This document shows positions 24,084 to 29,137 of a DNA stretch of 64,000 bases, one piece after another (position 1 is the first letter of the stretch; every line of letters starts with the position of its first letter). The stretch covers positions 1-64,000 of the forward strand of contig JABCTZ010000036.1 in assembly GCA_018238155.1 (NCBI GenBank). Reading direction: 5' to 3'. This DNA is from Candidatus Heimdallarchaeota archaeon. GTDB lineage: Archaea > Asgardarchaeota > Heimdallarchaeia > JABLTI01. A program made the position numbers and the translations under genes. The notes beneath the pieces were generated by a model, which was not told where the DNA came from, ran no database searches, and worked only from the letters and a program-made list of their open reading frames with translations.

Positions 24084-24160
24084 GCCGTCGTAGCACAGCC
24101 TGGTAGTGCGACTCCTTGGTAAGGAGTAGGTCGTGAGTTCAAGTCTCATCGACGGCTCCA
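24084..24160 (+). tRNA. tRNA-Thr(GGT); CCA encoded
   Basis: GCCGTCG/CGACGGC acceptor, ACTCC-TT-GGT-AA-GGAGT anticodon arm, TTCAAGT T-loop, U73. Confidence 0.95.
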
Positions 24161-24639: not shown

Positions 24640-25617
24640 TTGGTTCAAAAATTAAACAATAATCGAATTGAATTGATAAGCACTGGCGAAGATTTTCGTA
24701 ATGCAACCAAATCAATTGATGCTACTAATTATTCAGCTATTTTCCACGCGTACAAACAAAAGACCATTGCTGAATTGTTTGAAATTATCTCTCTCAATAA
24801 AATTAGGAATTATCGTTTAATTGCTGTTTATCTACTTGGCAAATTAGATGTGGCGAATCAAGAGGTAATTGATTTTTTACGTAATTTAGTTACATATGAG
24901 AATATCGATATTCGAAAAGAAGCTATTTGGTCTTTAGCTCGGTTGGGCGATAAGAATATTCTCCCAAAATTAATTAACATCTTAAAAACCGGTGCTACTG
25001 ATCTGGAAAAAAGTATTACTGCTAAATTAATTGGTAAAATAGGAAATGAGCATGTTATTTTGCCTTTGCTTAAATTATTGATTGAATCCGCTCCTTTATC
25101 CAGTCTTAGTGCCGGAATTGCTCTTCATCATTTGATAAATTGTATTGGTTATGAAGCAATTACTAAATATCTACGTCACCCTGAGCTAAAGATTAGGACA
25201 CAAGTGATCTGGTTTCTTTGTTCAAAAACAATGTTTTCCAATCAGCAAGAGGAGAAAAGGATTCTTATTATTCAGTTGAAAAAAGCGCTCCAATCGGAAA
25301 ATAATTGCAATGTAAAACTTGTTCTTGCTTATGCCCTCTCAACTTTAAATGTAATTGAGGGTGCAAAAGAATTGCTCTGTTTTTGCTTATCTAATAAAAT
25401 AAAGAAAGAACGTCAAAATTTCTTTTGGGAAGAAATTACTCGTTTCTATATTTACTCACAAAAGCAAGCATCTCTTGAACTAACGAGCAAATTAAATAAT
25501 GCCCTTTCAGGGAACGATCAAATACTCTCTCATACAAATAAAGCAATTTTTTCCCTTCTCAAAAAATTAGAAGATACTATCAGTAATCTAGATAAAATCT
25601 TTGATTTACCTCAATAG
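24640..25617 (+). CDS. HEAT-repeat (PBS-lyase-like) protein
   Basis: IRKEAIWSLARLGD and AKLIGKIGNEHVILPLLKLL repeats. Confidence 0.75.
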   Translation: MVQKLNNNRIELISTGEDFRNATKSIDATNYSAIFHAYKQKTIAELFEIISLNKIRNYRLIAVYLLGKLDVANQEVIDFLRNLVTYENIDIRKEAIWSLARLGDKNILPKLINILKTGATDLEKSITAKLIGKIGNEHVILPLLKLLIESAPLSSLSAGIALHHLINCIGYEAITKYLRHPELKIRTQVIWFLCSKTMFSNQQEEKRILIIQLKKALQSENNCNVKLVLAYALSTLNVIEGAKELLCFCLSNKIKKERQNFFWEEITRFYIYSQKQASLELTSKLNNALSGNDQILSHTNKAIFSLLKKLEDTISNLDKIFDLPQ

Positions 25618-25768
25618 CTTTGTTTTTTCTTATTCCCCGTACATGGGATAATGACTAATTACAATCAAAAAACAACAAACCTTCGAATTAACATAATAAT
25701 GTTAATTTCCTCCCTCTTTTATTGATGAATTTCCCCTTAGATTAACATATCTGTGATATGTATACGTA

Positions 25769-25776
25769 TTTATATA
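25769..25776 (+). promoter_or_regulatory. TATA-box-like element upstream of the ncRNA candidate
   Basis: TTTATATA about 21-28 nt upstream of the 5' end of the closing stem. Confidence 0.45.
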
Positions 25777-25796
25777 TAGATACCCAATAATAGGTT

Positions 25797-25952
25797 GGCG
25801 ATTAGAAAGCTAATGTATTCACAACAAACCTAAAGGTCTAGTAGTCGGTTTGGTTGGGGGTGCACTTGAAAAAGACGATAAGAAAATAGTCTTGTTTCCG
25901 AACCCGAGGGAACAAGATGACATTCGGAATTGTCGACTAATCGCCCTTTTTT
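25797..25952 (+). ncRNA. candidate structured ncRNA of unknown family (~150 nt)
   Basis: closing stem GGCGATTAG/CTAATCGCC, long internal stems with G-U pairs on the + strand, T6 tract immediately 3'. Confidence 0.65.
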
Positions 25953-25972
25953 CGTTTTGGTGAATAAAAAAT

Positions 25973-26830
25973 CTATTCTTCTAATTCTTTACCGATACTA
26001 ATAATTTTTTCTATAATACGCACTGTCTCGAGTGTTTCTTTGACATCATGCGTTCTGATAATATTTGCTCCATGAAGTACCGCTATACTTGTTGCTCCTA
26101 ATGATCCGAACAATCTTTCTTTTGGATCTTTAATGTCTAAAATGTGCCCAATAAATGATTTTCTTGATAATCCAATACAAATTGGTTGATTGAATGCTTT
26201 AATCATTTGTTGAATATTCATCAATAGATGAGCATCTATTTTATACCATTTAAAGTCATCAATACGATGAAACCCGATATCTGGATCGATAATTATCTTA
26301 TTTGGATTGATTCCTGCTTCTTCTGCTTTTTTCAACGAACCTTTCAAAGCTTCAATTACTCGTTCTGTTGGATTTCCTTTGAATCTATTTATGTTCCATG
26401 CACCAATTATTACTGGCACATCTAAATCTGCAGTGATCTTCGCCATTTTTTGATCTTCATTGAATCCGCTTATGTCATTGATCATTTTTGCACCTGATTC
26501 TATCGCTGCTTTAGCAACCACACTACTGGTTGAATCAATAGAAATGGGTTTCTTGATTTCATCAATGATAATATTGATTCCTTGTAAAGCTCTCTTTGTT
26601 TCCTCTTCTGTTGAAATTTGTGTTTCTAAATATGGTGCAGTGCTTTTAGCCCCAATATCAATTATTGTTGCTCCTGCTTTTACTTGCTGTAAGGCTGTTT
26701 GCAGTATTTTTCCCGGACCTGTTTTTACAGAGCTTTTGTAAAACGACTCCGGACTTAAGTTAATTACTCCTTGGATTTGCACAGGTTCATTCACACCGAT
26801 TTCCATTCCAGCAAGATTCACAATATTCAT
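25973..26830 (-). CDS. folP: dihydropteroate synthase
   Basis: GVINLSPESF, IIDIGAKST, ISIDS, INDISG, IIIDPDIGF, GLSRKSFIG, IIRTHDV. Confidence 0.92.
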   Translation of the reverse strand: MNIVNLAGMEIGVNEPVQIQGVINLSPESFYKSSVKTGPGKILQTALQQVKAGATIIDIGAKSTAPYLETQISTEEETKRALQGINIIIDEIKKPISIDSTSSVVAKAAIESGAKMINDISGFNEDQKMAKITADLDVPVIIGAWNINRFKGNPTERVIEALKGSLKKAEEAGINPNKIIIDPDIGFHRIDDFKWYKIDAHLLMNIQQMIKAFNQPICIGLSRKSFIGHILDIKDPKERLFGSLGATSIAVLHGANIIRTHDVKETLETVRIIEKIISIGKELEE

Positions 26831-26917
26831 AGTTATACACCATTTATATATTAGAAGCAAGTAGCAATTATTAAATGCGTTTTAAAAACTATTTGCATTA
26901 TTATTTGTTAAATTAAA

Positions 26918-29048: not shown

Positions 29049-29137
29049 GCCGAGGTAGTCAAGCTCGGACCACGACGCTGGTCTTGAAAACCAGTTCTCG
29101 CAAGGGAACGCGAGTTCAAATCTCGTCCTCGGCACCA
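29049..29137 (+). tRNA. tRNA-Ser(TGA); CCA encoded; discriminator A73
   Basis: GCCGAGG/CCTCGGC acceptor, CTGGT-CT-TGA-AA-ACCAG arm, long variable arm TTCTC-GCAA-GGGAA, TTCAAAT. Confidence 0.93.

Follow-up and report, generated by a model that had tools for sequence, protein, structure and literature searches.

A roughly 150-base RNA encoded on the + strand at positions 25797-25946 of a 64,000-nt stretch of a Heimdall-group Asgard genome (the window in what follows) very probably constitutes a real, independent, and new family of structured-RNA genes. Its fold is a three-way junction: helix P1 closes the molecule, and from it branch the long arm P2 and another arm composed of P3, P3b, and P4. 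All members detected come from a single family of Heimdall-group Asgard archaea. The original prediction, made from this single sequence, proposed an RNA that is transcribed on its own and may belong to a new family. It is supported by the negative Rfam searches, the covariation, the fixed loci of the copies, the TATA-like box and T-run at conserved distances, and the convergent orientation of the downstream genes.

The flanking genes are a HEAT-repeat gene upstream (24640-25617, +) and the pterin-binding folP downstream (25973-26860, -), the latter convergent to the RNA, and the gene calls agree with the location first described, between convergent HEAT and folP genes. The strings on which the prediction was built are also in place (TTTATATA at 25769-76, GGCGATTAG at 25797-805, CTAATCGCC at 25937-45, and T6 at 25947-52), as are the long P2 stem, the 11-bp stem at 25889-918, and the GACA/TGTC stem at 25919-34. 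The G+C content of the RNA stretch is about 35-41%, that of the genome 33%, and that of the spacer just upstream about 28-29%. When the whole window is scanned with the 4227 models of Rfam 15 at the gathering threshold, the only matches are two tRNAs lying elsewhere, a tRNA-Thr at 24084 and a tRNA-Ser at 29049, which are the only tRNAs in the window according to both ARAGORN and Rfam. Rescanning the 371-nt region at E<=10 adds a single match, to the PyrD leader, which is spurious (17.6 bits versus a cut-off of 47), and at E<=1 nothing falls on the RNA at the loci of the two paralogues described below. Because no Rfam family matches, the novelty that had been proposed subject to such a scan stands. 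Full-text literature searches found no description of such an RNA.

A blastn search detects one copy in the source genome and an orthologue in each of the 10 remaining genomes of its genus (71-92% identity). Across the taxonomic family, each of the 11 further genomes has an orthologue. With a covariance model trained on the same-genus orthologues (R1), a second, far more diverged copy emerges in every genome of that family, and with a model trained on both kinds of copy (R2), two to three copies are detected in each of these 12 genomes. There are three in the source genome: paralogue A, which is the copy in the window, paralogue B at C7:85331-85493, and paralogue C at C42:18500-18664. Family members are about 150-165 nt long. 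Outside the taxonomic family the RNA seems to be absent from everything that was searched: the covariance model gives no match in the other 71 of 83 genomes of the class, none in the other genomes of a 151-genome sample of the phylum (0 of about 149), and none in viral contigs, and the folP flanks of five other Heimdall families contain no homologue. Weak matches of 16-19 bits in the genomes G032, G012, and G016 look spurious. A sequence pattern, whose second gap measures 56-59 in real copies, was run over 185,579 species genomes and retrieved only the same Heimdall metagenome-assembled genomes plus four chance bacterial matches that fail the covariance model. One metagenome-assembled genome published as 'Candidatus Bathyarchaeia archaeon' (records DATKZI010000037.1 and DATKZI010000014.1) carries A and B with exactly the model scores of the same-genus genome G010, and the name hence seems to be a wrong label on a genome of the Heimdall group.

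The neighbours of each paralogue are the same from species to species, and A adjoins folP in every genome, including that of the second genus. Because this synteny is fixed, the copies are old, vertically inherited paralogues rather than a mobile element. A MITE or other mobile repeat would have left many dispersed, near-identical copies with terminal inverted repeats and target-site duplications, and the original prediction had named dispersed copies with such duplications as evidence against it. Instead, blastn finds a single copy and the covariance model three diverged paralogues that are syntenic across species.

At -49.1 kcal/mol, the predicted fold of 25797-25946 (+) is more stable than that of any of 200 dinucleotide shuffles, whose mean is -32.4 (z = -4.57); for the minus strand, z is only -1.36. 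The RNAalifold structure of ten orthologues contains 50 pairs, and compensatory changes occur in 18. Three G-U pairs, which work only on the + strand, are invariant among these orthologues; they confirm the strand that had been deduced from G-U pairs in the single sequence, and the fold of the minus strand is near chance. In an alignment of 24 members of the family, standard pairs occupy 90.3% of cells; shuffling the columns lowers this to 68.6%, and displacing the partners by 1-3 columns (slid controls) to 37-49%. Changes on both sides are found in 36 of the 50 pairs, that is, the covariation analysis suggested with the prediction reveals strong covariation across the family. The elements of the locus are listed in the table.

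Elements of the RNA locus of paralogue A (positions in the window; counts refer to the 24-sequence alignment)
Element	Position	Strand	Remarks
Upstream promoter element, GATTAACAyATC...TGTTAT-like, about -57 to -37	25740..25760	+	Conserved in all paralogue-A orthologues; putative role
TATA-like box (TATTTATATA) followed by AGATA	25767..25782	+	TTTATATA (25769-76) centred about 25 nt upstream of G25797
P1 5' strand (GGCGATTAG), probable transcript start	25797..25805	+	Pairs with 25937-45; 99.5% of cells paired; double changes in 4/9 pairs
Junction strand J1/2 (AAAG)	25806..25809	+	A25807, A25808, and G25809 invariant in 24/24
P2 arm, long hairpin with 16-nt apical loop	25810..25868	+	Helices 2 and 3; double changes in 18/20 pairs; 87-94% of cells paired
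Conserved A-G / tandem G-A mismatch site in P2	A25821, G25857	+	
P2-loop kissing nucleotides (GGU)	25835..25837	+	Complementary to ACC 25902-04; G25835 in 23/24 sequences
Junction strand J2/3 (AAAAA)	25869..25873	+	A25869, A25871, and A25873 invariant in 24/24
P3 5' strand (GACGAT)	25874..25879	+	Pairs with ATTGTC 25929-34
2x3 internal loop	between P3 and P3b (GAA/TTC)		
P3b 5' strand (GAA) and 5' half of 4x4 internal loop (AAUA)	25882..25888	+	P3b pairs covary (GC/AU, AU/GC)
P4 hairpin, 11 bp, loop GAACCCGA	25889..25918	+	Helix 6; double changes in 8/9 pairs
P4-loop kissing nucleotides (ACC)	25902..25904	+	C25904 invariant
3' half of internal loops: GACA, TTC (P3b 3' strand), GGA	25919..25928	+	A25920, C25921, T25924, and A25928 conserved in at least 22/24
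P3 3' strand (ATTGTC)	25929..25934	+	Helix 4
Junction strand J3/1 (GA)	25935..25936	+	Unpaired in consensus; GA or GU in most copies
P1 3' strand (CTAATCGCC)	25937..25945	+	Helix 1; 9-bp closing helix
T6 run, likely archaeal termination signal	25947..25952	+	T-run directly after P1 in 24/24 copies

Most of the stems first proposed are retained in this fold, namely the closing stem, the long stem of P2 (which extends outward by CTAATG/CACTTG beyond the part originally listed), and the 11-bp stem. The exception is the local GACA/TGTC hairpin, which shows no compensatory change and whose fourth pair fails in 15 of the 24 sequences. It is replaced by the long-range helix P3, whose own fourth pair covaries across the family (GC, AU, CG, GU, and UA). 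The alternative pairings fare no better. TTCCGAA with TTCGGAA, which includes the suggested CCGA/TCGG kissing, is present here, but over the family it pairs in 56.5% of cells against 53.6% when shuffled; TAGTCG with CGACTA, proposed as a competitor of the closing stem, is likewise present here, but pairs in 57.7% of cells against 51.7%.

The invariant unpaired nucleotides concentrate in the junction and in the internal loops, while the helices vary freely. Family-wide invariants are the AAG of J1/2, the A-A-A of J2/3, the GAC/GUC of P3, the AAUA/GAC of the internal loop, and the A-G site of P2. The AAUA of the 4x4 internal loop is nearly invariant (AGUA in one species), and this AAUA/GACA loop resembles, in sequence, a loop-E or sarcin-ricin motif. 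From a reading of the alignment, a K-turn or K-junction seems unlikely both at the junction and in P2: the tandem G-A of P2 lacks a 3-nt bulge, and J1/2 has a G-C where a K-turn needs a G-A.

Besides the helices, the family has a predicted tertiary contact, which is that between the apical loops of P2 and P4 and not the pairings originally proposed. The two loops are complementary in every copy, with sequences that differ by lineage: GGGU(A) in P2 and (U)ACCC in P4 in lineage A, GGAUUG and CAAUC(C/U) in lineage B, GAAC(UUGA) and (UCAU)GUUC in lineage C, and GAGAGA and UCUCUC in the C copy of the second genus. Within the loops, near-invariance is confined to two nucleotides, G25835 and C25904, which lie in the middle of this contact. 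Scored by our own script on unaligned loops of related and hence not independent sequences, rather than by a formal covariation test, the loop-loop duplex has a mean energy of -7.5 kcal/mol within the same molecule, against -4.4 (sd 2.4) for shuffled loops and -3.9 to -6.5 kcal/mol between paralogue groups. In copy A of the source genome the contact is just 3 bp, GGU/ACC (-2.6 kcal/mol). Because the two arms differ little in length (about 21 versus about 27 stacked layers, by our own count from the alignment), the contact is probably intramolecular, with the arms joined at their tips to give a closed Y or tuning fork.

Alternatively, the P2 and P4 loops might pair between molecules, so that the RNA would self-assemble into paralogue-specific dimers or rings, as do the phi29 pRNA and large multimeric bacterial RNAs. 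Each paralogue lineage indeed has its matched loop pair and weaker complementarity to the other paralogues, which would keep assemblies homotypic, and the loops are not palindromic, so that head-to-tail chains or rings are geometrically possible. The likeness to the phi29 pRNA (RF00044) extends to a size of 120-170 nt, a terminal helix between the two ends of the molecule, a three-way junction, and a pair of loops whose complementarity is kept by covariation while their sequence drifts. However, pRNA is phage-encoded and its intermolecular loops build a ring on the phage portal, whereas the present family is chromosomal, vertically inherited at three fixed loci among housekeeping genes, without a match to the Rfam model, phage or capsid context, or any copy in the viral contigs scanned. 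The contact is moreover only 3-6 bp long, and the similar arm lengths and the large flexible P2 loop make an intramolecular contact simpler. Self-assembly seems to us distinctly unlikely.

The three-way junction, the invariant purine-rich strands, and the distal loop-loop contact also recall the general plan of hammerheads, and the junction could in principle be the active site of a small ribozyme, self-cleaving or other, stabilized by the distal contact as in natural hammerheads. Yet its strands of 4, 5, and 2 nt (RAAG, AWAAA, and GA) do not fit the hammerhead core (CUGANGA, GAAA, and UH), no Rfam ribozyme family matches, and the 5' and 3' ends are locked in a 9-bp helix, as suits a stable full-length RNA. 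A catalytic role is very improbable.

Conserved signals surround the RNA. A box of the TTTAWAAG/AAATAAAG type precedes the first G of P1 by about 25-30 nt in all 24 copies; since the archaeal TATA element is positioned at about -26, this box is probably a promoter, and transcription would end at the T6 run. A promoter and a terminator had both been predicted: as sequences they are kept in 24 of 24 copies, and their functions may be taken as probable. Upstream of paralogues A and B there are further common elements, TGTTAT at about -47, CCnAATA at about -14, and AGATA or a similar sequence after the TATA box. None of these precedes the source genome's own genes for tRNA, SRP RNA, and RNase P RNA, and A and B could possibly share a dedicated transcription-factor site. 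The T-run is followed by about 12 nt (25953-25965 in the window and the equivalent positions elsewhere) that are conserved as well, as GGTTATGGGG, CGTTTTGGTG, or ACTTTGGTA, and that can form pairs with the end of the P1 3' strand (CCCC...GGGG, CGCC...GGTG). This segment might act as an additional terminator element, be a 3' trailer, or serve to terminate the convergent gene.

The three copies of the source genome are all intergenic and lie among unrelated housekeeping neighbours (HEAT and folP for A; pyrF, DUF202, and PolX for B; two glycosyltransferases for C), and these neighbourhoods point to no partner protein. At all three loci the downstream gene is convergent, with its stop codon 21-73 nt away, and the genes upstream of B and C are divergent. 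With no co-oriented gene downstream of any copy and divergent genes upstream of B and C, the RNA is neither a leader nor a 3' UTR; in particular, there is no 5' leader position for a cis riboswitch. The proximity of all three copies to the convergent stop codon, and the linkage of A to folP in all genomes, speak for a cis element, which might be a structure in the 3' UTR of the HEAT gene or else a terminator, antisense or bidirectional, serving the convergent folP. But the divergent genes exclude a 3' UTR at B and C, every copy has its own TATA-like box, and the conserved G-U pairs work on the + strand only, the minus-strand fold being no better than chance. A 150-nt covarying three-way junction also far exceeds what a terminator needs, and we give this explanation very little weight.

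The common archaeal RNAs can be set aside in turn. A tRNA, or a tRNA-Sec-like 9/4 fold with an intron, gives no ARAGORN or Rfam signal, and the T-arm-like GACA/TGTC hairpin is not conserved. The source genome has its own RNase P RNA (C24:104036-104373, 125.5 bits) and SRP RNA (C41:47065-47371, 115.4 bits), both above the cut-off. With the Alu domain of the latter class the family shares a closing helix with two hairpins, and the Alu loops form G-C tertiary pairs; the Alu hairpins, however, are a few bp long and belong to an RNA of roughly 300 nt, and the SRP RNA of the source genome is intact on a different contig. Box C/D guides are dismissed because the alignment contains no CUGA and no conserved RUGAUGA (GAUGA occurs in paralogue A alone), and H/ACA guides because no ACA comes after the lower stem; no Rfam snoRNA model matches. 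Y and vault RNAs, known from eukaryotes and some bacteria, are few paralogues of about 100-150 nt with a terminal stem followed by a U-run and a variable interior, and they serve as protein scaffolds. The likeness of our family to them is one of lifestyle only: the TROVE domain (PF05731) of Ro is not found in the source genome, which is 90.7% complete, while the Deinococcus and Bacteroides controls are positive, and there is no Rfam match to Y or vault RNAs.

The case of 5S rRNA deserves more attention, as no gene of the source genome or its relatives scores above the cut-off of the Rfam 5S model. One might therefore suppose that the family is derived from 5S rRNA, or is a ribosome-associated paralogue of it, keeping the layout of helix I, loop A, helices II-III, and helix V-loop E-helix IV. 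The order of the helices is indeed the same as in 5S rRNA (RF00001), and so are the 9-bp terminal helix, the AAAG-C of the first junction strand, as in loop A of the source genome's own putative 5S, and the loop-E-like AAUA/GACA (AGUA in one species) of the second arm. Sequence similarity is nevertheless limited to about 6 nt. RF00001 matches neither A (E<=10) nor B or C (E<=1), the RNA is about 30-45 nt longer than 5S rRNA, its paralogues are three and strongly diverged, and its apical loops pair mutually, a kissing of the loop C-loop D type that is foreign to the 5S fold. The absence of a 5S score and the foreign kissing loops imply that the family is not 5S rRNA, and a derivation from it is hardly probable.

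A better 5S candidate exists elsewhere in the source genome, where the best 5S-like signal, at C21:212067-212295 (L074:1501-1729), consists of two adjacent sub-threshold Rfam matches of 17.5 and 16.6 bits. Read by eye, this locus begins with the 3' two-thirds of the molecule (CCGGAAGUUAAGCC..., helix IV, GGGAAC), with the canonical loop C and helix IV motifs that our family lacks. Helix I follows, closed as a hairpin (GCUGCG-UUGCGA-CGCGGU), and then the 5' third (AAAG CUGGAGGG ... CCCGGAAAUGG). It is likely to be the 5S rRNA of the source genome, encoded by a circularly permuted gene. The same permuted layout is found in the complete genome G016 (L068:1501-1680).

Among known folds, the closest in plan are the purine (RF00167) and TPP (RF00059) riboswitches, which have a three-way junction closed by P1, side-by-side arms, and a distal tertiary contact, a loop-loop one in the purine class. 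The near-invariant junction nucleotides and the compensatory changes of the helices are also features of such tuning-fork aptamers. The RNA could thus be a trans-acting sensor of a small molecule, the junction or the internal loops forming the aptamer pocket and the ligand altering the stability of the RNA or its binding to a partner. Several copies with the same core in one genome, and the position of A beside folP in every genome, second genus included, would agree with this. Unlike these riboswitches, the family has no expression platform, no co-oriented downstream gene at its three loci, and no known ligand. It has instead its own putative promoter and terminator and two to three trans-encoded paralogues, of which B and C have unrelated neighbours. 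Its arms of about 21-27 layers are about three times those of known tuning-fork aptamers (about 7 bp), and no Rfam riboswitch model matches at E<=10. A sensing role is unlikely on this evidence.

Taking these elements together, the explanation that we find somewhat favoured overall is a family of structured RNAs, shaped as a closed Y, transcribed separately, and acting in trans as scaffolds. Transcription would start at about G25797 from the TATA-type promoter and end at the T6 run, giving a stable, compact RNA. That the invariant positions lie at the junction and in the internal loops, and that the helices change freely, suggests a scaffold: the invariant nucleotides may form a binding platform common to the family for one partner, most likely a protein, and the variable helices may be merely rigid struts. 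The specific mechanism, an RNP scaffold or a decoy for a protein, is put forward tentatively and is open to considerable doubt. An aptamer for a small molecule or a self-assembling RNA could make just as good use of this architecture. Judging from sequence comparisons, a protein partner is our best guess among the readings considered here, ahead of the aptamer, self-assembling, 5S-derived, ribozyme, and cis-element ones. A more ambitious reading, that of a class specific to the Asgard lineage in which a closed Y under a multi-element promoter senses a metabolite in trans or forms paralogue-specific multimers or an RNP, appears rather improbable.

To our knowledge, Asgard archaea, which the literature places closest to eukaryotes, have so far yielded very few structured non-coding RNAs. 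The word new applies here to the family, which has no detectable relatives; three-way junctions held by a distal contact between loops are a familiar type of fold. The family is ready for Rfam-style curation and for experiment, since its secondary structure is well supported, its tertiary contact covaries, it comprises three paralogues, and elements of its promoter are conserved. For the same pairs of species, the RNA has 75-77% nucleotide identity and the protein of the flanking HEAT gene (24640-25617) 38-43% amino-acid identity, and this better conservation of the RNA implies an important function. The narrow distribution, within one taxonomic family, may mark a lineage-specific RNP or regulatory system. 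If the Asgard-specific reading of sensing in trans, multimers, or an RNP were true, the RNA would represent a new functional class of RNA, beyond a new family.
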